A stretch of DNA of 64,000 bases from Mustelus asterias. Its lineage: Eukaryota. Within the stretch, counting starts at the first letter, position 1. The number at the start of each line of letters is the position of its first letter. A program made the position numbers and the translations under genes. Positions 146-63,477 of the stretch are shown here, piece by piece. A model generated the notes under the pieces. The model saw only the letters and a program-made list of their open reading frames with translations, did not search any database and had not been told where the DNA came from. The stretch lies in contig NW_027590138.1 of assembly GCF_964213995.1 (NCBI RefSeq), forward strand, positions 744,001 to 808,000, in the 5' to 3' direction.

Positions 146-185
146 GGTTTTTGCACGGCATTCACTATATCTCTGCAGCAGTGTG
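146..185 (-). other. RSS of V1 (CACACTG, 24-nt spacer, GCAAAAACC)
   Basis: Heptamer 179-185 and nonamer 146-154, read on the minus strand. Confidence 0.8.
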
Positions 186-490
186 GGCTTCGTGGCACAG
201 AAGTACACGGCGCTGTCGTAGATCAGTGTGTTACTGATCGTTAGTTCGGTAATCGTGTTCTTTTTATTAAATTTGGAAGAAAACCGATCATTGAGGTCGG
301 TGTTCCTTTGCACGTTCTCACCTATAAGCTGAAACATGTACACTGGAGCTTTCCCGGGCTGCTGACTGTACCAGTACACATGAGGGCTGGAATCGCTTGT
401 TTTCAAGGTACAGGTTAGTGTGACATTACTTTCCTCTTTAACCGATATTTCAGGATCCATTTGTTCCACTTTGTCTTGGAGGGTCCATTC
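186..490 (-). CDS. TCR alpha/delta-type V segment V1 (V exon; leader exon not located)
   Basis: Not in the ORF track (no ATG). Acceptor ttctgttag, then an open frame EWTLQDKVEQMDPEISVKEESNVTLTCTLKTSDSSPHVYWYSQQPGKAP...ELTISNTLIYDSAVYFCATKP. Has Cys23, the WY.Q motif and D..VYFC, and abuts an RSS. Confidence 0.9.
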
Positions 491-4006: not shown

Positions 4007-5453
4007 TCACAATCCGAGTAAATAAAATTTCACCAGCTTCTTCAGATCCTTTCTGAATTGTGTCTGGGTCACTGCATAAATGCATGTGTTGGTGCAGCAA
4101 CTCAGGAGTTGAAGCATAAATCCCAGTTCGATTACACACCCAGGTATGTAGAAAATGATTACACGTAAATCATACAATCGTAGACAAAAAGAACTGAACA
4201 GGTACACTGACCATAACAGGATAAAATTTGCAGATAGAGAAAACAGTAAGATGATAGATTTCCTTCGCTTCTCTATCTCTGGGTCAGTTGCAATCTCGCC
4301 ACTCGTGGGGCTCCGAAATCTCTTGCGGATTTTGCTCGACATTAGAATATGTTTAACGGTTAAAACATTGAGCAGCAGAATCAACAAGAAAGGAACAAAC
4401 GGTGTTAAAATATAATGTAGATTTTCAACTGCTCGCCATATTGGTGAATTCCTGACATCTGAAAGTACAGAACAAAAATAGGGAGAATTTGCAAACAAAT
4501 ATGTATCCTCATACATGAAGTACCAGAAAGTGTTCTTTACACTGAACAGCACACTCACTGTTCCGAGAACCACAGCTGCCGTTTTCTCGGTGCAGTATTT
4601 TATTTTCAGCTTCTGCCAGGTAATGGCCACGAATCGATCAAAGGTGAACGTGACAGTAAACCAAACAGAACAATCAGTGACAGCATAAAGCAGGACGGCA
4701 TGGATATCACACACTTTAATATTATAGACGAATAGAAATTGATCACTAAAAATGATAGGAATTTGCCTCAACATGAGATCAATGATGATGACCAGCAGAT
4801 CTGCCGCTGACATGGAGATTAGGTAACGTGTGACACATTTGGAAAGTCCACATCTTCCTCGAGACAGTATAAGAATCGTTATTAAGTTCACTGTAAGGAA
4901 GAGAGACACAATTAACTCACATTTCAGACTGAAAACAGGAGCAGTGGTCTGTCAGGATTCTATGGAACAGCTGCAGCATTTTTACAGAATCAGCCGAAGA
5001 ATAAAATTGATTCATCTGTTCTGCTGAGACAGGGTGTACAGTCATAAAGCACCGCACTGATGTAGCAAGAAACCAGATTCACCAACAGATCTGATCTCCA
5101 AGGCAGCAAAGAAGCCGGCGGAGATGGGGAACGAATGGGGTGATCAAGGAGATGGGGTGGGGGGGATGTTGGCAGAGAGGGGGAAGGGAAGGAAATAGAG
5201 TGCAACCACCAGGCACGAGTAGGGAGAATGGCTGCCGGGAGGAGAGAGAAATCTTCCAACTGCATTAGCACATAAGGAACATAACGTTTGCAAATAATAA
5301 TATTATTAAGTGCTTTTCATGGACACGGGCAATAACCGGAGTGAAATTAGATTCACCAGTCACACCAACTGCAGCGAGGAGTGGGTAGTAAGTCCTTTGG
5401 ATATCGTGAAGTACCCAAATTATACGAAACTCAAGTGGAACAACCCAGAACAT
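4007..5453 (-). CDS. Two-exon class A orphan GPCR, GPR139/GPR142-like (326 aa)
   Basis: Exon 1 is 5357-5453 (MFWVVPLEF...YYPLLAAVGVT, donor GTGAAT). Exon 2 is 4007-4890 (acceptor ccttacag). The phase-1 join gives an open 981-nt CDS with 7 hydrophobic segments, YLISMSAADLL, FTFDRFVAI and TM7 LLSCCTNTCIY. Confidence 0.9.
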
Positions 5454-14300: not shown

Positions 14301-14917
14301 TAATATGGAACTGTAGCTACGTTATATATTTCCAGACATCTCTTTCCTCAGAGGGTTGTGAGTCTTTTGGATTTCTCTTCCAAAGGGACCAGTGGAGGCT
14401 GAGGATCATTGAATATATTCCAGTTAGACAGATCTTTGACTGACAAGGGTGTCAAGGATTATGGGGAACAGACAAGGATGTGGTAAAGCTTTGGAATTCT
14501 CAACCCCTGAGGACAGTGAAACCTCAGTCATCAACTATTTTCAAGAGGGCGATTGATTGGTTTCTAGATATTGAGGATATCAAGGGATATGGGTTCAGTG
14601 TGGGGAGAATAATGCTGAGGTAGATGAACGAATTATCTCCCTGAATAGTTTAAAAGGCTCGATGGGCCAAATGGCCGACTGCAGCTCCTATTTGTTATGG
14701 TCTCTGTGTCCAGGACAGGAAGCAGTGAGCAATAGATAACGCAAAACTGTTTCAATCAGTAGAATATTCGCTAATCCAAATACGCCAGTGTAAGAGAAGG
14801 AAAGGCATTGAATGATCGTGTTCACTTGTTGCACTGCCAGTTGTTCAAAGCTGGAAACACACTGCCTAAAATGGTGGCAGAATATTAAACATAAATATTT
14901 AGAAGGAAATTGTATGT

Positions 14918-17466
14918 AACAGACCACCCAACAGCTCACGGGAAGTGGAGGAAAGGATATGTCAGGAGATTCTGGATAGGTGCAGAAAACATAGGGCTGT
15001 TGTAGTGGGGGACTTTAATTTCCCTGGCACAGACTGGAAAGTGCTTAGAGCTGGGGGACCGGACGGGGAGGAATTTGTAAAATGCGTACTGGAAGGTTCT
15101 TTGGAACAGTATGTAGATAGCCCGACTAGAGAGGGGGCTATACTGGACCTAGTTCTGGGAAATGAGCCCGGTCAGGTCGTCAAAGTTTCGGTAGGGGAAC
15201 ATGTGGCAAATAGTGACCACAACTCTATTAACTTTAGGATAGTAATGGACAAGGATGAGTGCTGTCCTACGGGCAGGGTGCTAAATTGGGGGAAGGCTGA
15301 CTATAGCCGGATTAGGCAGGAATTGGTGGATGTTGATTGGGAGAGGATGTTCGAGGGTAAGTCCGCGTCTGGCATGTGGGAGTCTTTTAAGGAACTATTG
15401 ATAAGGCTGCAGGATAGGCATGTGCCTGTAAAAAGGAAAGATAGGAAAGGTAGGATTCGAGAGCCGTGGATAACCAGGGAAATTGAGGATCTGATTAAAA
15501 TGAAAAGGGCGGCGGACGTCAAGTCCAGGCAACTGAAAACAGATGGAGCTCTGGAGGAATACAGAGAGAGTAGGAAAGATCTCAAACGGGGAGTTAGAAG
15601 GGCAAAAAGAGGTCACGAGATGTTCTTGGCAGGCAGGATTAAGGAGAATCCTAAGGCATTCTATTCATACGTTAGGAACAAAAGAGTTGTCAGGGAGAAA
15701 ATCGGACCTCTCAGGGACAAAGGAGGGGAATTATGTTTAGAACCCAAGGGAATAGGGGAGATCCTAAATGAATACTTTGCATCGGTATTCACGAAGGAGA
15801 GGGGCGTGTTAACCGGGAGTGTCTCGGAGGGAGGTGTTGACCCGTTAGAGAAAATCTCCATTACAAGAGAGGAAGTGTTAGGTTTTTTAGGGAACATTAA
15901 AACTGACAAAGCCCCAGGGCCTGATGGCACCTATCCTCGACTGCTCAGGGAGACGAGAGGTGAAATTGCTGGGCCTCTGACGGAAATCTTTGTCGCTTCT
16001 TTGGACACGGGTGAGGTCCCTGAGGATTGGAGGATAGTGAATGTGGTCCCGTTGTTTAAGAAGGGTAGCAGGGATAACCCAGGAAATTATAGGCCGGTGA
16101 GCTTGACATCCGTGGTAGGAAAGTTGTTGGAGAGGATTCTTAGAGACAGGATGTATGTGCATTTAGAACGGAACAATCTCATTAGTGACAGACAGCATGG
16201 TTTTGTAAGAGGGAGGTCGTGCCTTACAAATTTGGTGGAGTTTTTTGAGGAAGTGACAAAAACGGTTGATGAAGGAAGGGCCGTGGATGTCGTCTATATG
16301 GATTTCAGTAAGGCATTTGACAAAGTCCCACATGGCAGGTTGGTTAAGAAGGTTAAGGCTCATGGGGTACAAGGAGAAGTGGCTAGATGGGTGGAGAACT
16401 GGCTTGGCCATAGGAGACAGAGGGTAGTGGTTGAAGGGTCTTTTTCCGGCTGGAGGTCTGTGACCAGTGGTGTTCCGCAGGGCTCTGTACTGGGACCTCT
16501 GCTATTTGTGATATATATAAATGATTTGGAAGAAGGTGTAACTGGTGTAATCAGCAAGTTTGCGGATGACACGAAGATGGCTGGAATTGCGGATAGCGAA
16601 GAGCATTGTCGGGCAATACAGCAGGATATAGATAGGCTGGAAAATTGGGCGGAGAGGTGGCAGATGGAATTTAATCCGGATAAATGCGAAGTGATGCATT
16701 TTGGAAGAAATAATGTAGGGAGGAGTTATACAATAAATGGCAGAGTCATCAGGAGTATAGAAACACAGAGGGACCTAAGTGTGCAAGTCCACAAATCCTT
16801 GAACGTGGCAACACAGGTGGAGAAGGTGGTGAAGAAGGCATATGGTATGCTTGCCTCTATAGGACGGGGTATAGAGTATAAAAGCTGGAGTCTGATGATG
16901 CAGCTGTATAGAACGCTGGTTAGGCCACATTTGGAGTACTGCGTCCAGTTCTGGTCGCCGCACTACCAGAAGGACGTGGAGGCATTGGAGAGAGTGCAGA
17001 GAAGGTTTACCAGGATGTTGCCTGGTATGGAGGGTCTTAGCTATGAGGAGAGATTGGGTAGACTGGGGTTGTTCTCCTTGGAAAGACGGAGAATGAGGGG
17101 AGATTTAATAGAGGTATACAAGATTATGAAGGGTATAGATAGGGTGAACAGTGGGAAGCTTTTTCCCAGGTCGGAGGTGACGATCACGAGGGGTCACGGG
17201 CTCAAGCTGAGAGGGGCGAAGTATAACTCAGACATCAGACGGACGTTTTTTACACAGAGGGTGGTGGGGGCCTGGAATGCGCTGCCAAGTAGGGTGGTGG
17301 AGGCAGGCACGCTGACATCGTTTAAGACTTACCTGGATAGTCACATGAGCAGCCTGGGAATGGAGGGATACAAACGATTGGTCTAGTTGGACCAAGGAGC
17401 GGCACAGGTTTGGAGGGCCGAAGGGCCTGTTTCCTGTGCTGTACTGTTCTTTGTTCTTTGTTCTTT
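14918..17466 (+). mobile_element. Young 5'-truncated CR1/HER1 LINE with uninterrupted ORF2 (partial endonuclease plus RT)
   Basis: 813-aa ORF at 14945-17386 with GDFN, SDH, PGPDG, QHGF and FADD, ending in a (TGTTCTT)n tail. Confidence 0.95.
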
Positions 17467-17894: not shown

Positions 17895-18640
17895 ATGGTG
17901 AACTATCTCATTCCGATCCTCATCATTATCCCACTGCTCAGTAAGTAGCTCTTGACGCAAAGGGGATCAAAGGATATGGGGCAAATGGGATCCGGTTATT
18001 GAATTGTATGATCAAACATTGATCAAAATGAATGGCTGGGCAGGATCCAAGGGCTGAATGGACTACTCCTGCTCCTATCTTCGACGTGTTTATGTATTTC
18101 CTTTCCGCAAAACCAAATGTTATTGCTGACAAATAATAATGATCGTTCTGATGACGATTTTGTTGAGGAATATTCGGCTCGTACTGATTAGAACCATAGA
18201 AAATTACAGCTCAGAAACAGGCCTTTTGGTCCTTCTTGTCTGTGCCGAACCATTTTATGCCTAGTCCCACTGGGACTAGGCATAAAATTACTTTTATTTA
18301 AACATTACTTTTATGTTTGCCCTTATTTTATGTTAGAATGGTGTCACCAAGACACGGTGCAGCAGTCGGATGCCAAAATAACAACTGAAGAGGAAAGTAA
18401 TGTCACAGTTACCTGCAACATGAAGACGAGCACTTCTAACCCTTATGTGTACTGGTTATAGTCAGAGCCCCGGGCAGCCTCCACACGACATGCTTCGTAT
18501 TATGGGAGGGAAACTGTACAAACACACCGACATCAGCGACCGCTTCCAGCTTCATTAAATAAAACTGTCAAGATTACCGAGTTAATGATCGGCAACACGC
18601 TGATGACTGACCGTGAGGTATATTTATGTGACTTAAACCC
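17895..18640 (+). pseudogene. TCR V pseudogene V2 (paralog of V1)
   Basis: Leader 17895-17940 (MVNYLIPILIIIPLL, gtaagt) and V exon from 18337 (WCHQDTVQQSDAKITTEEESNVTVTC...VYW). A +1 nt after W gives TAG, and there is a later -1. The 3' end reads DREVYLCDLNP. Confidence 0.88.
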
Positions 18641-18672
18641 CACACTGCGATAGCGGATCTGATACAAAAGCC
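18641..18672 (+). other. Defective RSS of V2 (CACACTG, 16-nt spacer, ACAAAAGCC)
   Basis: Spacer 18648-18663 is neither 12 nor 23 nt. Confidence 0.75.
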
Positions 18673-18681
18673 CCAGAGTAA

Positions 18682-19331: not shown

Positions 19332-19370
19332 GGTTTCTGTACGGGACCTGCCTGTGTTTATTACAGTGTG
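19332..19370 (-). other. 23-RSS of V3 (CACACTG, 23 nt, ACAGAAACC)
   Basis: Heptamer 19364-19370, spacer 19341-19363, nonamer 19332-19340. Confidence 0.9.
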
Positions 19371-19703
19371 CCTCATGGTGCAGAAATAGGTGGCAGTGTC
19401 TGAAACCTGTACGTCTCTCACAGTCAGGATGCTGAGTTTGTTGCCTTCTCCGATCGAAGCAGTGATCCTCCCGTGTTGATCGGTTCCGCTTGTGGCCATC
19501 ACCAGATGCTGGGGCGACTGATTCGGGAGCTGTTTATACCAACGCACGGTGTCAAACGTAATGGAAATAGTGCAGTTCATGGATATATTTCTCGCTTCAC
19601 TGATAACCATCCGTGGAGGGAGCTGCAGCAACTCAGCTTCTCCGGTCATCCCCGTGCAGATCAGAGTGAAAAACAACAAAACGTCGATGCAAATCCTGAC
19701 CAT
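19371..19703 (-). CDS. TCR alpha/delta-type V segment V3, leader and V in one exon
   Basis: Continuous ORF MVRICIDVLLFFTLICTGMTGEAELLQLPP...MNC...WYKQLPNQSPQHL...DTATYFCTMR with no intron between signal peptide and V domain. Confidence 0.9.
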
Positions 19704-20324
19704 TCTCAGTTCACACACAACACCGAGGTCAGCTTTGAACCAGGAGATGAAAATTAACCCGGAACCAAGTATTTTCTTCGGGTTCAGTTCAGTGCCGTGT
19801 TTATGTTGAACTGACAACATTAGGCGGGTTCTACTTTAGCCACCCATACTGAGCGTTTCACACTGACACAGGCCCACACAGCCTCTGAGTACACACCTGA
19901 CACGCCCAGATTAAATATTTCTCACGGGACACACTGCTCTCTACTGGTGAATACTGGTAATTCCAGGGTGCAATTCTTCACTTGGATCTTCGACAAGTTG
20001 CAGTTCACAAGATAGTTATAAATGAGAACAGCTGTTTCCTCCTTCGTGTTATAGCTCTTTTATTGCGGGAGAGCTTACAACTTTCCTTCTGTTCTACGAT
20101 CCAACGATTGCAGTGCATTTTGCTCTCTCGTTCTTTCTGAAGTCTCATTCCACATTGTGACCAGTCCCGGTGTGTTAGTCCTAAAATATCGTTCGATAAT
20201 TTGGGAACTTGTGCAATGGGAACTGGTCTAGCCATCGAATGTATGTTACATAACTACAGGAGTGGCAACATTGACAATTCATAAGAATATTTCAAAAAAT
20301 AATAAGTTTGTTATCAGTGTTAAC

Positions 20325-22347: not shown

Positions 22348-23239
22348 ATGTCTCCTGTGACTCTGAGCTTATTCCTCACAGCTGCAGCTCTACTAACCGG
22401 TAGGTTCACAAGTTACAAACTCTGCGTTTCACATATTTACCATTCACTGCATTCAATTGAGCAGTTCGATTAACGCACTGGTAAAAGTATATATTGATTC
22501 TAATATCAATTAGAATCATCTTTGTCTCACCAAGAGAGGAGGCAAAATACCTCAGCTGAATGAGAGTGAAGAGTTAAGGTGGGATTGCAGGCCCCGCCGG
22601 AGCCGCTGAGGGACTTTGACAAACTTGATAAAATCTGGATGAAAGCGTTGACAAACCCGAGATCTAAAACCCACGGACAGTTTAGTTTCCCCATCAAATA
22701 ACGTGAAACGAAGGCGAGGATCTGATCTCCTTAGAAGGTGTTCATTTAACGGAGTGTCATTTAACCGCGACAAACACGTTCCCGTTACAACCTGCGTGTT
22801 GCGGGATTTATATTCCTGTTTAGATGCTGTGATTCGTTTTTCAGATTATTGGCCAGGGTGACGGGCCGAATCCGGCCATTAAACAAAGTGAACTGACATC
22901 GTTTAATTTAGCATGACTCTTGGCTCTTACAGGACAATGTGGAGGAGATCCAGTTTCACAGATACCGGCTGCAGTCACAGTGAGTGAAGGAGATGATGTT
23001 CAGTTATTCTGTAATTATACAACTCCAAGCACTGACAATTATTACCTATTCTGGTACCGTCAGTATCCCAGCGGATCCATGGAGTACCTGCTGAGGAGAA
23101 GCAAATATACCGGGAACAAAGAGAGATTCCCAGGGGACCGTTTATCAGCAGAGCTCAATGATACAACCCGTACCGTCCCGCTGAAAATGTCTAAAACAGA
23201 GCTGGCAGACTTCGGGGTGTATTACTGCGCACTGAGACC
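22348..23239 (+). CDS. TCR alpha-type V segment V4 (intact leader plus V)
   Basis: Leader 22348-22399 (MSPVTLSLFLTAAALLT, G/gtaggt). V exon from 22933: GQCGGDPVSQ...LFCNY...LFWYRQYP...DFGVYYCALRP. CALRP is a typical TRAV/TRDV ending. Confidence 0.93.
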
Positions 23240-23278
23240 CACAGAGACACAGAGCTGGGCTGAACCTGTACAAAAACT
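23240..23278 (+). other. 23-RSS of V4 (CACAGAG, 23 nt, ACAAAAACT)
   Basis: Heptamer 23240-23246 and nonamer 23270-23278. Confidence 0.9.
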
Positions 23279-24320: not shown

Positions 24321-24359
24321 GGTTTTTGTACGACTCGTATTGATCTTTACAACACTGTG
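24321..24359 (-). other. Perfect-consensus 23-RSS of V5 (CACAGTG, 23 nt, ACAAAAACC)
   Basis: Heptamer 24353-24359 and nonamer 24321-24329. Confidence 0.95.
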
Positions 24360-24878
24360 CCTCGACTGCACAGAAATAGGTAGCAGTGTGTGTCACCCGA
24401 GTGCCACCAACATTCAGAGCCCTTCGTTTCTCTGCAACAATGTTCCGAGCACTGATCCTGCCCTGATCGCTGGTACCGCTCACCAGGTGCTGCACGGTTC
24501 GGTCCGGGTATTGTCTGTACCATTGTAGGACCAGTCCAGCTGCAGTAGTGGAACAGTTCAACGATGCCAGGTCTATCTCAGTAACCACCACAGACTCTGG
24601 AGACTGTGATACCTCTTCACTACCAGCGGCATCTGGGAAGGATATGTAGATACGCAATAATATCATAAAATTAAAATCTCATAGTGCAATACAATGTTGC
24701 ACAATGAAGTACAATTGAATGCATAATACAAGATAACACAACAAAACAGAATACTATTTAACAGAACGTAGCATTGCTAATGTGTGAAATATCGCTGTCA
24801 GAAATAGCGACCACACTTACACTGAGGGAAGAGTAAGAAATCCAGGGAGATGATCACTGAAGCGAAGCTGAGCTTCAT
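24360..24878 (-). CDS. TCR alpha/delta-type V segment V5 (leader plus V)
   Basis: Leader 24821-24878 (MKLSFASVIISLDFLLFPQ, T/gtaagt). V exon 24360-24632: AAGSEEVSQSPESVVVTEIDLASLNC...WYRQYP...THTATYFCAVE. Confidence 0.88.
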
Positions 24879-25206: not shown

Positions 25207-26229
25207 TGGGTCTGGTCTGAGGGACAGAAACATCTCTCCCGGAGCTGATCTGAATATCCAGCCCTGAGTTTGTGGGAATTTACAACTGATCAGAAACTGG
25301 TTTAACTTGTAAACTGATTTGATGACGGATCTGCCGGTCTGATCGGAATCTGCAGTTAATTTTCTCGGTCATGACTGGAAAAAAAATGGGTGAATGTTTA
25401 GTCCGAGGTTAATGTGGTTTCCGCTGGGTGTGTGTTTTTTGATGCGGCTGAGAACAGCACTGCTCACAGTGGCTGTATCTATCCAGATTCTATCCTTTGT
25501 CTAACATCAAGTGTAATTTACTAACCCTGCACTTGATAGAAATCAATAAGGTTACATCGAGGTTTCTTTTGAATCAATTTTTGAAAAATGCCATCTGGGC
25601 CTTTTGCTAAGATGAAGCTCAGGTCAAGCGCTGGAAGGAATATAATACCTGCTCCAATCAGCTAGGATGTTGTTAATCAAGCCCAAGACTGGAGGAATGG
25701 GCCCTGTGTTGTCGGCTTCGATCTGCAACGTCTCTCTTGCAGCGACTTTTGAGTGGACCAATTCGGTTTTTGATTGGATATAACTAAAACAAAAAGCCGG
25801 CATCTCGGTCTTTGGACTCGGATCAAGCATCAAATGGAGCCCAAGATCAGGTGCGATGCTCTTTCATGTCAGCCTGGATCTTTTGCGAGGACCATGAATT
25901 AGATTCAATTTGAATTGGTTTTGGGGGCGATTAGGAGATGGATTCTGGCTTGGCCAGTCCGCTCTGCGCATTGGCTTTGCAACGTTAAGCAATTACTATT
26001 TTACAATGCGACAGACAGGAGCTCCCGAAGACAATGCAAAGTGCGGGGTTGGATTGGTTTCCATCATAAATTCCGTCAGTGAGTCCTTATTCTGATCAAC
26101 TGTTCAGAGTCCAATTTCTCCAGCTGGAGATGGAGAGAGGTTTGGCTGCCTGACCGGTGCTGTTGCTGTTGTTTGTTTCACGATTGGCTGCAAACATGAG
26201 TAAGACTTCCTGCGAGCGCAGTTCAATAT

Positions 26230-36262: not shown

Positions 36263-36937
36263 TCACTCGTGAACTTGTTGGTGTCTCAGCAGCTGGGATG
36301 AAACTGTGAATCCCGTCCCACACTGAGAGCAGGTGAATGGCCTCTCCCCAGTGTGAACTCGCTGGTGTCTCAGCAGGACGGATGACCAAGTGAACCTCTT
36401 CCCACACTGAGAGCAGGTGAACGGTCTCTCTCCAGTGTGAACGCGCTTATGTGCCCGCAGGTTGGATGACCGAGTGAATCCCTTCCCACACTGAGAGCAG
36501 GTGAATGGCCTCATCCCAGTGTGAACTCGCTGGTGTGTGCGCAGATTGGATGAATGACTGAATCCCTTCTCACACTGAGAGCAGGTGAATGGCCTCTCAC
36601 CAGAGTGAAGTCGCTGGTGTGTCTGAAGGTTGGATAACCGACTGAACCCCTTCCCACACTGAGAGCAGGTGAATGGTCTCTCCCCTGTGTGAACTCGCTG
36701 GTGTGTCTGCAGGGTGCATGACTGAGTGAATCCCTTCCCACACTGAGAGCAGGTGAAGGGCCTCTCCCCTGTGTGAACTCGCTGGTGTATCTGCAGCTGG
36801 AATAACCGAGTGAATCCCTTCCCACACTGAGAGCAGGTGAATGGTCTCTCCCCAGTGTGACTGCGCCGATGAGCTTCCAGCTCTGATGGGGATCTGTATC
36901 TCTTCCCACAGTCCCCACATTTCCATGGTTTCTCCAT
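36263..36937 (-). CDS. C2H2 zinc-finger protein ZNF-A (8 fingers, no KRAB seen)
   Basis: ATG MEKPWKC at 36937, then 8 CxxC...HxxxH fingers with TGERPF linkers. The upstream exon part (to ~37290) is degenerate. Confidence 0.9.
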
Positions 36938-39619
36938 GGTGCAGGTGTCCTTGCCTCTTTCTTGAGTGGACAATCAGTTGAAGCCTTGCCCACACACAGA
37001 ACACGGGTACCGTCTCTCCCCGCTGTGAATGTTGTGATATTTATTCAGGCTGTGTAACTGGTTAAAGCTCTTCAGTCAGTGCACTGAAACACCCTCACTC
37101 GAGTGTGGCCGTGTGTTGGTGCTTTTCCAGTCACACTGACACTTGAAATCTTTTCAAATTGACAAACTGGACAACAATTTCTCCTTCTAGATTCAAAGGC
37201 CGATGATATTCAGCTCCCATGGAATATGACTCTGTCAGATCGAGATGTGACGTTTGAGATTTCGGCCTGTGATTCCTCTTTCAGTATCCTGTAAAACAAG
37301 TTTACAAAAGTCATCAGTGTCAGTACAGGATAGAAATTCAGAACAGACAATTCTAGTTTCTATGGAACATTCTTTCCTCTCTCCAGACTCGAAACATTGG
37401 CTCTATTCTCTCTCTATCTTGGGGATAGCGTGGGAAATGATGCTGCAGTCGATCAGCCAATTCTCAATGAATGGTTGAGGCAGTTCGATGGGCTGAATGG
37501 CCAACTGCAGCTCCTGTTTCTTATGATTTGTGTGTGGTGGACAGGAAGCAGTGAGCATGGATCTGTCAATCAGCCTCAATCAGCACCTTCAGGAGAATTG
37601 GGAGGGCGAATATTAGATACAGCAGAGTGAGAATGGAGGGAGAGTGTGTGGAATGAAGATTCACAGCTTTTGGGGAACGAGAGAGGAAAGAATGTTCATT
37701 CGAATCATAGAATTCTTACATCTTATCAACCGTCCCTGAGCCTTCACAATGAATCTCTCTTCTCAGGACACTCTTATCTCTGACTTGTCTGTGCTGCTCG
37801 CAGTCTCACAAAGCAGCTGCCTGTGTGTTGGTACAAGGGGCCCTGCTCGGCAAGTTTAATGCTCCATGACTGTGTCTTTAATGACTGAATAACTATAGGA
37901 ATATGGTCAAGTCAGCTAAATCCAGGATGCTTTATATTTCGGTTAGTAACTGTCCATTTTGTTAACACAGCACATTTGGATACATAAATACATATAAAAG
38001 CAAAATATTGCGGATGCTGGAATCTGAAACAAAAACAGAAAGTGCTGGAAAATGTCAGCAGGTCTGACAGCATCTGTGGAGAGAGAATGGAGCCAACATT
38101 TAAAGTCTGGATGACCCTTCATCAGAGTTCTGACAAAGGGTCATCCAGACTCGAAATGTTAGTCTATTCTCTCTCTATAAATATATATACGACAGCTGCC
38201 TCAGCCTTGGCCCACTCTAATACATGCACGAAGCAGGGCTGACTATGTGGAAATGCTCAGATTAAAGTTTCCTGCCTTCTCTTTAACAGCGAGTGAAAAT
38301 GTTTATCGGCTTGCAGACCTTCAAAGGAGTCAGTGTCTGCTATTTCAGCATGAACAGGCTAATCTTCACCTACGTAGGCCCCAGAACATTCTGCTTTTCG
38401 GCCTTCACCAGAGGGTGAGCAAGACCAGATTTCTCCATAACAAATACCAAAGGTGAGATATGGGGATATGCTATGCAAATAAAAGATTTGCAGAAATTAA
38501 TTTTGAATGCGAAAGGGTGAAAAGCGAGGATTTAATTGGCGAATATGTCCGTCAATGAAGGATTAGAAACATTCCTGGTTTCTGATTTGCTGTAATTGAC
38601 TATTATTGCCAAGTTATTTTTCTGTAACATCAGAACCACTTGCGGGACAGCTGCACAGGGTTTCCCCTTGTGCACAAGTCATTAAAGGCCCCACATTGGA
38701 TTGTGCGTGGTGTCCAGTGCTGTTTGTACTCAAGTCGACTAAGAATGCCTAAAGGTACTGGTACCCAGGATCTCTGACAACTCTCCCTAACCGGACCTTG
38801 ACTATCCAAAGGTTGGCCAGAATCCTCTCCAGTAACTTACCTGCCACTGGTGTCAGGCTCACCGGCCTGTAATTACCAGGCTTCTCTTTGCAGCCCTTCT
38901 TAAACAATGGAACAACATTAGCCACACTCTAGTCTTCCAGAACTTCACCAGTGGAAAGGGATGAAGCAAATATCTCTGCAAGGCCCTCTGCAATTTCATC
39001 CCCAAGTTCCCCAAACTCCCACAAGATCCAAGGATGCACTTGATTTGATTTATTATTGTCATATGTACTAGTATACAGTGAAAAGAATTGTTTCTTGCAC
39101 ACTATCAAGACAAAGCATACAGTTCATAGAGAAGGAAAGGAGAGAACATAAGAACATAAGAAATAGGAGCAGGAGTAGGCCATCTAGCCCCTCGAGCCTG
39201 CCCCGCCATTCAATAAGATCATGGCTGATCTGACGTGGATCAGTACCACTTACCCGCCTGATCCCCATAACCCTTAATTCCCTTACCGATCAGGAATCCA
39301 TCCATCCGCGCTTTAAACATAAAGGGTGCAGGATGTAGTGTTACAGTCATAGCTCAGGTGGACAGAAAGATCAACTTAGTGCGAGGTAGGTCCATTCAAA
39401 AGTCTGACGGCAACAGGGAAGAAGCTGTTCTTGAGTTGGTTGGTATGTGAGCTCAGACTTTTGTTTCATTTCCCCAATGGCAAAAGGTGGAAGTGTGAAT
39501 GTCCGGGGTGTGCGGGTTGATTATGCTGGCTGCTTTTCCGAAGCAGCCGGATGTGTAAAGAGTCAATGGATGGGAGGCAGGTTTGCGCAATGGACTGGGC
39601 TTCATTCACAATCCTTTGA

Positions 39620-47345: not shown

Positions 47346-47997
47346 ATAAAAGCAAATTACTGCGGATGCTGGAATCTGAAACCAAGAGAGAAAATGCTGG
47401 AAAATCTCAGCAGGTCTGGCAGCATCTGTAAGGAGAGAAAAGAGCTGATGTTTCTTGTCTCGATGACCCTTTGTCAAAGCTCTGAAACATCAGTTCTTTT
47501 CTCTCCATACAGATGCTGCAAGACCTGCTGAGAATGGGGAGAGAGCTTTTGGGGAATGAGAGAGGAAAGAATGTTCCATAGAAATTGTCTGTTCTGAATT
47601 TCTATCCTGTACTGACACTGATGACTTTTGTAAACTCATTTTCCAGGATATTGAAAGAGGAATCACAGGCCGAAATCTCAAACATCACGTCTAGAACTGA
47701 CAGAGTCGTATTCCTTGGGACCTCAATATCACCGGACTTTGAATCCAGAAGGAGAAATGATTGTCCAGTCTGTCGATTTGAAGAGATTTGAAATGTCAGT
47801 GTGAGTGAAAAAGCATCAACACACTGCCACACTCGAGAGAGAGTGTTCCAGTGCACTGACTAAAGAGCTTTAACCAGTTACACAGTCTGAATAAATATCA
47901 CACCATTCACAGCGGGTAGAGACTGTAATCTTGTTCTGTGTGTGGACGAAGTTTCAACTAGTTGTCCACCCAAGAGAGAGGCAAGGACACCTGCACC

Positions 47998-48672
47998 ATG
48001 GAGAAACCATGGAAATGTGTGAACTGTGGGAAGGGATGCAGAACCCCATCTCAGCTGGAAGCTCATCGGCGCAACCACACTGGGGAGAGGCCGTTCATCT
48101 GCTCTCAGTGTGGGAAGGGATTCACTCAGTCATCCCACCTGCAATCACACCAGCTACGTCACACAGGGGAGAAGCCGTTCACCTGCTCTCAGTGTGGGGA
48201 GGGATTCACTCGGTCAACCAACCTGCAGTCACACCAGCGAGTTCACACTGGGGAGAGACCATTCACCTGCTCTCAGTGTGGGCAGGGATTCATTCAGTTC
48301 TGCAGCCTGCAGACACACCAGCGAGTTCACACTGGAGAGAGGCCATTCACCTGCTCTCAGTGTGGGAAGGGATTCACTCGGTCGTCCCACCTGCAGAGAC
48401 ACCAGCGAGTTCACACTGGGGAGAGGCCATTCACCTGCTCTCAGTGTGGGAAGGGATTCACTCGGTCAACCAACCTGCAGTCACACCAGCGAATTCACAC
48501 TGGGGAGAGACCGTTCACCTGCTCTCAGTGTGGGCAAGAATTCACTCAGTTATGCATCCTGCGGACGCACCAGCAAGTTCACACTGGGGAGAGGCCATTC
48601 ACCTGCTCTCAGTGTGGGAAGGGTTTCAGCGTTTCATCCCAGCTGCTGAGACATCAACAGGTTCACGAGTGA
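47998..48672 (+). CDS. C2H2 zinc-finger protein ZNF-B (8 fingers), inverted paralog of ZNF-A
   Basis: ATG MEKPWKC at 47998 and 8 fingers. N- and C-termini and 3' UTR are near-identical to ZNF-A. Acceptor ttccag/GATATTG near 47647. Confidence 0.9.
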
Positions 48673-57064: not shown

Positions 57065-58447
57065 GGCAACATCTGGGAGGAAATCAATGTCTCCCCCTTT
57101 CCATTTCCTTTCTCATTCTGGGGGAAATTGGGGACTTGCAGCAACTGATGGGAAAGGAAGTGAATCCAGGGAGACTGCAGACTCTGAAAACGTTATAGAC
57201 GAACATCGGAATTAGGAGCAAGACTAGGCCCAGGTATCTTTTTCTTTCTCTCACAAGACATTGACATCCTTTAGCTCCCTCACTTTGACATGTTTATATA
57301 TCTGGCTAATAGGATGGCCTCTTACCCAATGTTCATAATTCAAGGGGGAGTTTTCTCAGGAGAGGGCTAACATTTTAATGAACAGTAAATTTGTATGGGA
57401 GAGAGATATGTTTAATGTAGTTACATGGTATATACTATGTTATTTACGATTCCCTATTTCTTGTCTTAAAATATATAGCAGTGTATCAACATTATCTATT
57501 TTCAGTGATGGAAACATTACAACATAGAATAGGCAACTCAGATCCATGCCAACTCTCTGTGGAGCAATTCAGTCAGTCCCATTCCCTCTCTGTATCCCCA
57601 TTCCCCTGTGTTTCACGTCACAATGGAATGGATGAGAGTTCCAAAGGAGCTGAGACTGGAGTAGAGTTGATCAATGGCACTGAGGTGGAAATAGGCGGTC
57701 TTGATGATGATGTGGCAATGTGGCTGGAAGCTCAACTTGGGGTGAAATATTTTACCATGGTTGTGAACAGTTTGCTTCAGCCTCAGACAGTTGCCAGGAA
57801 GAGGGAGAGAGTTGCTGGCGAGGGAGTGGAGTTTGCAGTGGGGACTGAAGACAATGGGTTCAGTCTTCCCAATGTTTATATGAAAGAAATTTCTGTTCTT
57901 TTAGTACTGGACGTCAGACAAGTCAGGGTGGTGTGTGAGTTGGAGGGGAACTTGAAGGTGATGGTGTTCCCATCTAGTTGCTACCCTGGTCCTTCTAGGT
58001 GGGTGGAGGTTGAGGGTTTGGGAAACTTTCTGTCAAAGTTCTAATTGAGTTGTCAATGTACAAAATCCCTCTCCTTCACCCTGACCTCTCCTACTTCTCT
58101 CTATCTTCTCTCTCAGTGTCCAGAGTCTTGTGTCCAGACCGTGTGGCAGATTTCCTGCCCTGAAGGATATCAGTGAACCCGCTGGGTTTTTATGACAATC
58201 CAGCAGTTTTCATGATCACTTTTTCCGAGTGCCAGCCCCACAAATGACCAGATTCATTCAGCTCAATTTCACAAACTGCCTTTGTGTTTTTGTGGGTTCT
58301 CTCTCACTTCCTTTTTTCTGTTTTAAATCAATTTCACAGGGTTTAGAAGAGGAGGATTTGCAGTTGGGAAACTGAAACCAAATATTATATCAAAACCTGA
58401 TGGAGTTAGCCAATTTATTGTAACCTGAATATCATTGTGTTTTGAAC

Positions 58448-59315
58448 ATGGAAGGAAATAGCACCGTTCACAGTGAAGAGAAACTGTACACGTGTTCTGT
58501 GTGTGGACAAGACTTTAACCAATCATCCAGCCTTTCGGAACATAATTGCAGTCGCAACAGGGAGAAGCTGTGGAAATGTGGGGACTGTGGGAAGGGATTC
58601 GATTACCCTTCCCAGCTGGAGATTCATTGGCGCAGTCACAGTGGGGAGAGACCATTCACCTGCTCCCAGTGTGGGAGGGGATTCACTCAGTCAAACAGCT
58701 TACATATACACCAGAGAACTCACACTGAAGAGAGACCATTCAACTGCTCCCAGTGTGGGAAAGGATTCAGTGCCTCATCCCATCTGCTGAAACATCAGCG
58801 AATCCACACTGGGGAAAGGCCGTTCACCTGCTCTGTGTGTGGGAAGGGATTCACTCAGTCTTCCAACCTCGCATTACACCAGCGAATTCACACTGGGGAG
58901 AGGCCATTCACTTGCTCCCAGTGTGGGAAGAGATTTGCTCAGTCAGCCACCCTCTTCACACACCAGCGGATTCACACTGATGAGACCTTTTAAATGTCCA
59001 GACTGTGGGAAATGCTTTAAAAATTCTGTAAATCTGCATTACCATCAACGTGTTCACACTGATGAGAAACCATTCAGGTGCTCTCACTGTGGGACTGGGT
59101 TCAAGCAATCATCTCAACTCACTGTACACCAGCGCACTCACACTGGGGAGAGACCGTTCACCTGCTCCCAATGTGGGAATGGATTTGCTCACTCATCCAC
59201 TCTGCTGACACACCAGCGAATTCACACCAGGGAGAAGCCATTCACTTGTTCCAAGTGTGGAAAGGGATTCAGTCAGTCATCCAATCTGCTGAGACACCAG
59301 CGAGTTCACAAGTAA
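58448..59315 (+). pseudogene. C2H2 ZNF-C, 9 fingers plus 1 degenerate, frameshifted at ~58983
   Basis: ORFs 58442-58993 and 58839-59315 join at HTDE(R)PF, where GAGAGACC has become GAGACC (-2 nt). Confidence 0.8.
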
Positions 59316-61505: not shown

Positions 61506-62559
61506 TGGGTCTGTTTCCATTGCTGTTAATAAACAACAGTCCATTTATAGGTGTTAATATTGTGGATAATAGTCAAATAAATTGACTTTGTGTTAAACAC
61601 ATGGCCTTTTTAATATCTTCAACACAGGTTCATCCAATGATTGGCCGTGGTAAAATTGACCTTAGTGTCAGTGGTAATAGCAGGGCCAGTAAATGGGGTT
61701 ACAGGAATAGGGCCTGGGTGGGATTGTGGTTGGTGCAGACTGGATGGGCTGAATGGCCTCCTTCTGCACTGTAGGGATTCTATGATTCTAGTCTTGTAAT
61801 AGAATATTGTAACTATGTTAATATACTTCCAGGCATTGTTATTCCGATAGAGAAGGAGACAATATCAACTTCTTATAGAGCAATCCAGTCAGACCCATTG
61901 CCCCTCCATCTACCCATTCTCCTGCAAGAATATTTCCTTCAAGTGCGCATCCAATTTCAGTTTGAAATCTTTAATTGTTTTCACTGCCACAAGATCCGTG
62001 GGCACCCAGTTCCAGATCATGATCACTCGCTGCACCCACCATATCTCCAACCAAGTAATGAGTGCTGCATATTACACACATTTGAACAGGAAGTGATGAG
62101 CATGGATTCATTAACCAACATGAATTGGCACCTTTAGGAGAATTGGGAGGGTGTATAGTGCGATACAGCAGGGTAAGAATAGTGGGGAAAAGTAAAGAAT
62201 TTTCTATAAAAACTGGAATTGTCTTTTCTGAATTTCTAAGTTGCACTGACAGTGATGAATTTTGGAAATTCGTGTTACAGGATATCAGAAGAGGATTTCC
62301 AGACAGAAATCTCAAAACAAACACTCATGGTGATCTGACAGATTAACTCCATTCATCGGGACCTGGACAACATCAGCCTTTGGAATCTACAAAGAGAAAT
62401 ATTTGTCTGTTCTTCTGCTTCAAGAGATTTCAACCATAAATGTGATTGGAAAAGCAAGAACACATCTTGAAAAGACAGCACCAGTCACATTGGGGTGAGA
62501 CCATTCGGGTGTTTTGTTGTGGATGAGGCTTCAGCTGACTGTCAAACTGGGAGAGACAC

Positions 62560-63477
62560 ATGGACACCAGCACCATGGAGAAGCCGTGGAAATGTGGAGA
62601 CTGTGGTAAAGGATTCAATTTCTCACACCAACTGGAAACTCATCGATGTAATCACACTGGGGAGAGGCCGTTCATTTGTTTGGAGTGTGGGAAGGGATTT
62701 GCTCATTCATCCTCCCTGCAGACACACAAACGAGTTCACACAGGGGAGTGGCCATTCACCTGCCCCGAGTGCGGGAAAGGATTCACAAGTTCATCCCACC
62801 TGGAGACACACAAGCGAGTTCACAGCGGGGAGAAGCCATTCACCTGCTCCGATTGTGGGAAGAGATTCAGTGAATCATCCAACTTGCTGATGCACCAGCG
62901 AGGTCACACCGGGGAGAAATGGTTCACGTGTTCAGAGTGTGGGAAGGGATTCACTCAGTTATCCCACCTGCAGACACACGAGCGAGTTCACACTGGGGAG
63001 AGGCCATTCATCTGCCCTGAGTGTGGGAAAGGATTCAGTAATTCATCCAACCTGCAGAGACACCAGCGAATTCACACCAGGGAGAGACTGTTCAGCTGCT
63101 CCGAGTGTGGGAAGGGATTCACTGATTCATCCTATCTGCTGATACATCAGCGAGTTCACACTGGGGAGAGGCCGTTCATCTGCTCTGAGTGTGGGAAGCA
63201 TTTTCCTTATGCATCAAATCTGCAGAGACACCGACGATTGCACACTGGGGAGAGACCATTCACCTGCTCCTATTGTGGGAAAACATTCACTCAGTCATCC
63301 CACCTGCAGATACATCAGCGGGTTCACACTGGAGAGAGACCATTCACCTGCTCTCAGTGTGGGAAAGGATTCAGTAATTCATCCAACCTGCGGACACACC
63401 AGCGAGTTCACACTGGGGAGAGACCAGACTCCTGTTCCACATGTGAGAAGGATACAATCGATCATCTAATTGGCTGA
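62560..63477 (+). CDS. C2H2 zinc-finger protein ZNF-D (10 fingers plus a degenerate last finger)
   Basis: 305-aa [15 protein letters not shown]... with TGERPF linkers. Acceptor gttacag/GATATC at 62280. Confidence 0.9.

Follow-up and report, generated by a model that had tools for sequence, protein, structure and literature searches.

A clade of shark TCR alpha/delta-type V genes with leader and V domain in a single exon and a germline 23-RSS

Introduction

In the IMGT prototype, a V-GENE consists of L-PART1, V-INTRON, and V-EXON (PMC13113880), and a 2025 elasmobranch paper describes, in the passages used here, the leader of all antigen-receptor genes as split (PMC12227049). The closest departure from this arrangement is found in chicken, where TRAV1 (V-alpha 1) and TRGV1 are germline families with the leader and the V region in one exon, followed by an RSS (Frueh et al. 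2024, PMC10972964). TRAV1 is the largest V-alpha family of chicken and has been detected in rearranged repertoires, and Frueh et al. call the feature unique to chicken V-alpha 1 (PMC10972964). Another V gene without a leader intron is opossum TRMVj, for which retrotransposition or intron deletion has been proposed (Parra et al. 2008, PMC2275272).

Regarding sharks, TCR alpha/delta V exons are scattered through the elasmobranch antigen-receptor complex, where they lie in either orientation between the IgH clusters of a single chromosome, and the passages describing it list no single-exon V family (PMC12227049). The nurse-shark aV9 group comes from cloned cDNAs of rearranged TCR-alpha chains (Ott et al. 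2018, PMC5931798); its published rows begin at the mature N-terminus, with the leader and the genomic structure outside them, and the word 'intron' is absent from the main text of that paper. Passages on newt, salmonid, and TOGA2 hold no further single-exon precedent, and a full-text literature search, with most subscription papers outside its reach, returned no report of a single-exon leader-V from sharks. Opossum VH3.1, which is partly joined and intronless and keeps its RSS, was not returned by that search either.

In this work, we describe V3, a V gene in a stretch of 64,000 nt of the Mustelus asterias genome, here called the window (contig C106, positions 744001-808000). V3 is very probably an intact germline shark TCR alpha/delta V segment and a member of a large single-exon leader-V clade, which likely arose by one ancient intron loss followed by many DNA-level copies. 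A single-exon leader-V with an RSS is already known from chicken, and the V3 clade is the shark addition to it. As in TRAV1, where 45 of 48 genes have the single-exon leader-V with its 23-RSS, the feature is family-wide; contrary to TRAV1, many members of which have a weak RSS and low use (PMC10972964), most of the shark copies examined have a near-consensus RSS. Opossum TRMVj is pre-joined to D and J (PMC2275272), whereas V3 is unrearranged, keeps its RSS, and belongs to a multigene clade.

Anatomy of V3

The features of V3 in the window are the following:

19332..19703, minus strand: V3, with leader, V domain, and 23-RSS contiguous
19641..19703, minus strand: V3 leader of 21 codons, a predicted signal peptide that shares its exon with the V domain
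19651..19652, minus strand: canonical phase-1 leader-intron position, reading CGG/GG (slash at the position), without intron and without acceptor AG
19371..19640, minus strand: mature TCR alpha/delta-type V region of V3, open, with the Cys23 codon at 19574
19332..19370, minus strand: germline 23-RSS of V3, made of heptamer CACACTG (19370-19364), a spacer of 23 nt, and nonamer ACAGAAACC (19340-19332)
19894..19899, minus strand: CAGGTG element, about 196 nt 5' of the V3 ATG

The frame of V3 starts with an ATG at 19703 on the minus strand and stays open for 111 codons, to 19371, where the RSS follows directly. An earlier note on this DNA had described the leader and the V domain as one exon, followed by an intact germline 23-RSS, and both the arrangement and its coordinates were right. 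The domain matches Pfam V-set (E 2e-9) and its best single-domain PDB matches are TCR alpha chains; with Cys23, Trp41, and Cys104 present, an open frame, and a 23-spacer RSS on its 3' side, V3 has what defines a shark TCR alpha/delta V segment. It departs from the canonical IMGT V-GENE prototype in having no acceptor, and no upstream L1 was found for it; the ATG, a signal-peptide-like leader, and the V region in one open exon place it in the single-exon leader-V kind. Inspected by hand, the leader has a basic residue at position 3, a hydrophobic core, and a small residue at -1, and its 21 residues would be cleaved before Glu22. In other V genes the intron interrupts the sequence at the place equivalent to 19652/19651, 11 nt ahead of the first codon of the mature region. 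A V3 transcript would need no leader splicing.

Heptamer and nonamer carry one mismatch each to the consensus, and the RSS of V3 is less perfect than those of the tandem copies on contig C71. The V region ends in Cys-Thr, as against Cys-Ala in its family. Judged from its sequence, V3 looks functional, in agreement with the earlier proposal of a potentially functional V. It likely behaves as V segments generally do, in which case RAG would cleave beside the 23-RSS and V3 would be joined to a D or J with a 12-RSS. The CAGGTG element at about -196 is retained in three subfamilies (15/16, 11/12, and 4/4 copies) and missing from the others; it may be either an E-box or the donor of a non-coding exon.

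Split-leader V genes in the window

Three other V genes of the window serve for comparison:

24321..24878, minus strand: V5, split-leader, nearest related family, with L1 at 24878-24821, an intron of 188 nt, and the V exon from 24632
22348..23278, plus strand: V4, split-leader, with L1 at 22348-22399, an intron of 533 nt, the V exon from 22933, and a 23-RSS at 23240
17895..18680 (right end approximate), plus strand: V2, split-leader pseudogene, with L1 at 17895-17940 and the V exon from 18337

With the L1 and V exons located, the leader introns of all three are phase-1, just as the earlier note had claimed. V5 has a perfect 23-RSS at 24359, and its family is 45-52% identical to the V3-family query used in the genome search. 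V2 contains an in-frame stop and a frameshift. Another gene, V1 (150-489, minus strand), has an acceptor and an open V exon; the spacer of its RSS, however, is 24 nt long, and no leader exon was found upstream of it within the window. At 25471, a weak RSS match with a 22-nt spacer was dismissed, as no V lies behind it.

Besides V genes, the window contains a single-frame rhodopsin-family GPCR ORF amid them (4007-4951, minus strand; Pfam 7tm_1) and C2H2 zinc-finger arrays beside the V cluster (36263-36973, 47962-48672, 58424-59315, and 62539-63477). Reverse-transcriptase fragments are also many, one of them an open frame of 827 codons at 14903-17386, which we take to be CR1-like.

A clade-wide single exon

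The genome searched was the species' own (3.68 Gb). Many matches of the first search span the leader and the V region in one frame, and at least 74 near-full-length V3-family matches at 59% identity or more stood among the 150 matches listed, a lower bound obtained with the mature domain of a divergent paralogue as the query. Copies were fetched from 75 hits at 57% identity or more, three of which had no anchor and were dropped. The 72 copies examined comprise 65 that are in frame from the start codon into the V region and 7 that are frameshifted; the ORF is intact in 55 of the 72, and 50 of these 55 have a 23-RSS within two mismatches.

None of the 65 in-frame copies has an acceptor AG at the canonical intron site. 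The fetched DNA contains 104 V segments that have an RSS, a sample biased towards the V3 family; among them, a strong phase-1 acceptor occurs in 0/53 members of the single-exon clade, compared with 49/51 across nine other V families. The single-exon clade is also the largest V clade of this same biased sample (53/104), and annotation tools that require a splice acceptor would miss or mislabel it. Looking for an intron in the nearest paralogues had been proposed in the earlier note as a check on its account: the V3 clade shares the lack of the acceptor, the V5 family keeps its intron, and the origin of the single exon is not specific to one copy.

The start of the leader is equally constant, with the ATG at the same place in 64/65 in-frame copies (two codons earlier in one subfamily) and a purine at -3 in 65/65, which argues that the leader of the clade is not chance read-through. 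Short-read contigs of family members, from runs that may be the source sample, span the leader-V junction without gap or joint. The four runs used cover the flanks too and show the behaviour of DNA, from one study. Adenine at third codon positions of the leader has a frequency of 0.05, close to that in true L1 exons (0.08) and unlike that in intron ends (0.33). Comparison between subfamilies gives pN/pS values of 0.67 for the leader, 0.57-0.76 for the frameworks, and 1.2-1.4 for CDR1/2, i.e., above 1 in the CDRs and below 1 in frameworks and leader, as would be expected of working V genes; within subfamilies, the leader value is about 1.2, from few changes. Taken over the clade, the gene form is a single exon that would be old and probably functional. 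As a separate observation, the codons of the hydrophobic core (19650-19685 in the window, and paralogues) are unusually conserved in DNA across distant subfamilies (28/29 nt in one pair).

It could still be argued that the in-frame leader is intron sequence read through, and that the real leader sits in an upstream exon which escaped detection and is spliced to a cryptic acceptor. Such a structure would suit the conserved donor-like element at -196 and a weak GAG acceptor in phase 1, which most copies have 21 nt past a CTGAY motif. However, no phase-1 L1 exon was found within up to 1.3 kb upstream in 63/65 clade copies, and the candidates in the other two, which belong to another subfamily than that of V3, both lie about 1 kb away. 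For the V3 subfamily the search gave 0/16, and the same search recovers 41/46 true leader exons elsewhere. Since ATG, frame, and length of the leader are moreover conserved across subfamilies and species, we regard an upstream leader as very improbable. Two circumstances had been weighed by the earlier note against its own account: a family that is single-exon as a whole and already described, the first half of which is what was found, and a spliced upstream leader, for which the V3 subfamily gave no candidate exon.

Descent and age of the clade

A branch with support 98/98 separates the single-exon rows from all others in a tree of 56 proteins, and the split-leader V5 family joins the single-exon rows at 98/91; this tree is midpoint-rooted and holds at most five distinct rows per subfamily and at most three per split type. 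After the addition of six outside proteins, support for the single-exon group was 75/77 and the node was no longer resolved on the roughly 90 columns. Two bird V proteins of unassigned family were placed outside the shark clade in this enlarged tree.

All nine other V families sampled, including the nearest relatives, have split leaders, which makes it likely that an intron once existed and was lost, and the intron loss claimed in the earlier note gains support. A single origin, by a single ancient loss, is likely from the same sequences. The introns of the clade's nearest relatives here also suggest that the shark loss was independent of that in chicken TRAV1. A single loss, its age, and the use of the V3 copy itself are points that we infer.

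Homologous, gap-free leaders are found outside Mustelus. Three models from Chiloscyllium punctatum (P0006, P0007, and P0021), known from protein alone, have 42-50% identity, and a JGI ORF (P0005) has 61%. Viewed by eye, all four continue beyond the V end into RSS-like sequence. Leader similarity exceeded that of shuffled sequences for the three outside proteins tested (0-34 of 2000 shuffles as high). The gene caller behind P0005 presumably does not splice. Two metagenome scans for the DNA of relatives came up empty, a homologue search from a single sequence found nothing, and a search of long proteins returned distant mammal and bird models only.

Use of the family in another shark is indicated by the nurse-shark TCR-alpha cDNA table, in which, by eye, 7/19 aV9 rows are of the V3 family, with the same short CDR2, and one row matches V3 at 51/85 residues by hand count; the aV9 label also takes in unrelated V types (PMC5931798). 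From the bamboo-shark leaders and the nurse-shark cDNA rows together, the family would therefore be old and is, on this sequence match, used in rearranged alpha chains of another shark. Sharks would thus be the second vertebrate lineage, after birds, with a large rearranging TCR V family that has no leader intron, and the rule that every antigen-receptor gene has a split leader gains a shark exception.

How the intron was lost

The part of the V3-clade leader equivalent to L1 is 52 nt long, which is ordinary at this locus (37-58 nt), and its codon composition is L1-like; both fit a clean intron loss. The loss step would then be an in-place replacement by spliced cDNA, a mode that we favour slightly over its rivals, tentatively and at somewhat less than an even chance. 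With respect to the earlier claim of a precise loss through reverse transcription, the intron loss stands, but nothing positive was found for reverse transcription, poly-A is lacking, and the data are matched at least equally well by an imprecise deletion.

Such an imprecise genomic deletion would have fused L1 with roughly 9 nt of the intron's 3' end, and the acceptor AG would have changed later. It involves no reverse transcriptase and would replace the loss step only. A V5-family L1 followed by the last 9 intron bases matches the leader at 22/45 nt, compared with 18/45 for a precise join, and 22/45 was reached by 2/150 codon shuffles. At the peptide level, V5-family L1 peptides are the best-scoring match for the leaders of three subfamilies, in a register shifted by about four codons, and the three of 114 tests in which at most 3/300 shuffles scored as high all concern the V5 family. 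However, the model was picked after the data had been seen, and an unrelated control family reaches 22.9/45 with a 15-nt tail, so that base composition can explain the score; an L1-equivalent of ordinary length speaks against the deletion as well. We consider it possible, if rather unlikely.

The third mode is the exonisation of the intron end, in which the acceptor AG mutated, an intronic in-frame ATG took over, the pyrimidine tract turned into the hydrophobic core, and the old L1 decayed; again, only the loss step would be replaced. The bases before the junction do resemble an acceptor minus one letter (9/14 pyrimidines, and CNG in the majority of copies), and in 49 unique intact copies ACA, the codon that would restore the acceptor, never occurs as codon 17. 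Donor-like sites are also found, 248 nt upstream of the junction in three subfamilies and, in 4/6 copies of another subfamily, 154 nt upstream, after a hydrophobic ORF of 12 codons in phase 0. These sites nevertheless differ in place among subfamilies and have no phase-1 leader ORF, and comparable chance hits occur about 1 kb upstream. A leave-family-out score of acceptor versus L1 end, at -0.2 to +4.1, overlaps both classes, non-coding comparisons revealed no consistent similarity to the V5-family intron, and the codon composition of the leader is that of an L1. Exonisation is therefore doubtful, and in-place replacement by spliced cDNA remains our tentative preference for the loss step.

Spread of the copies

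Sequence similarity between copies extends far outside the genes. The flank of V3 is 82.5% identical over 1869 nt to that of a member of the 12-copy tandem array on C71 and 73.7% identical over 1039 nt to that of another subfamily. All aligned subfamilies are homologous for at least 250 nt past the RSS, and three also for about 400 nt on the upstream side. The poly-A check proposed earlier turned up none on the 3' side of the RSS, where, within up to 1 kb, no run of A exceeds 9 in any of the 72 copies. The hallmarks of a processed retrocopy, namely a poly-A tail and lost flank homology, are thus lacking, even though an ancient tail could have decayed. Long common flanks without poly-A point to DNA-level duplication, which explains the copies as far as their sequence goes, rather than repeated retroposition, and the V3 clade does not demonstrate germline retroposition.

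The same evidence bears on the account given in the earlier note, read as the retroposition of a spliced germline transcript that was recent, confined to this copy, and powered by nearby LINEs. V3 does lack the intron and keep its RSS intact, and the reverse-transcriptase ORF at 14903-17386 lies about 2 kb from it. On the other hand, the intron is missing in all subfamilies, flank homology continues past the RSS and upstream among them, no poly-A is present, and other sharks have the same leader. With a feature that is clade-wide, alike in other sharks, and accompanied by common flanks of up to 1.9 kb, the idea of a singular local event falls, and we give recent retroposition hardly any credence compared with one ancient loss followed by DNA-level copying.

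Positions 3776-33775 of the window, inverted, are 100.000% identical to C90:1,000,000-1,029,999 over all 30 kb compared, which would reflect either a very recent duplication or an assembly duplicate. V3 lies inside this block, so that the copy numbers given here may include assembly duplicates.

Locus layout

On the same contig as V3, and outside the window, C106:650-689 kb carries on the plus strand an Ig-like V, a D with 12 and 23 RSS, several 12-RSS J, and a TCR-type C exon, for which only the first exon was seen; from the D segment we infer that the C isotype is delta-like. V3 stands about 75 kb beyond this C exon in the opposite orientation and thus has both 12-RSS D/J segments and a C exon of TCR type in cis. 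Its nearest partners would be provided by the D, J, and C part (C106:666-689 kb), 75-97 kb away, and reached by inversion under the 12/23 rule. With the clade and intron-bearing relatives in one locus, the effect of a leader intron on V usage and expression could be tested directly.

The C106-type C exon has 19 copies with 84-100% identity, the others being on C71 (7.14, 11.04, and 12.27 Mb) and 15 further contigs, and paired J motifs recur on many contigs that bear it. Close relatives of V3 lie 68-83 kb from such a C exon on C90, C111, and C119, and twice on C71. The 19 copies would amount to a multi-cluster TCR layout, some of them possibly being haplotype or assembly duplicates; in the rows used here, a published shark table gives one TCRD for catshark (PMC12227049). 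A broader reading would join these points: an independent major shark clade older than the divergence of this species from bamboo and nurse sharks, an origin in a genomic event, not in retroposition, through which part of the intron stayed in the signal peptide, and the V3 subfamily as the standing inverted V of a delta-like D-J-C unit duplicated up to 19 times, in an Ig-like multi-cluster TCR locus. As a whole, this combination seems unlikely.

No C-alpha was found on C106, the contig of the window. A J-alpha cluster with a C-alpha exon lies at C71:18.37-18.42 Mb and a second one at C546:137-240 kb; their J sequences differ and their C-alpha exons are only 83% identical. About 0.95 Mb beyond the C-alpha of C71, and inverted, lies the tandem array (C71:19.364-19.397 Mb), with 12 single-exon V genes at a spacing of about 2.46 kb, whose differences cluster in CDR1 (pN 0.174, pS 0).
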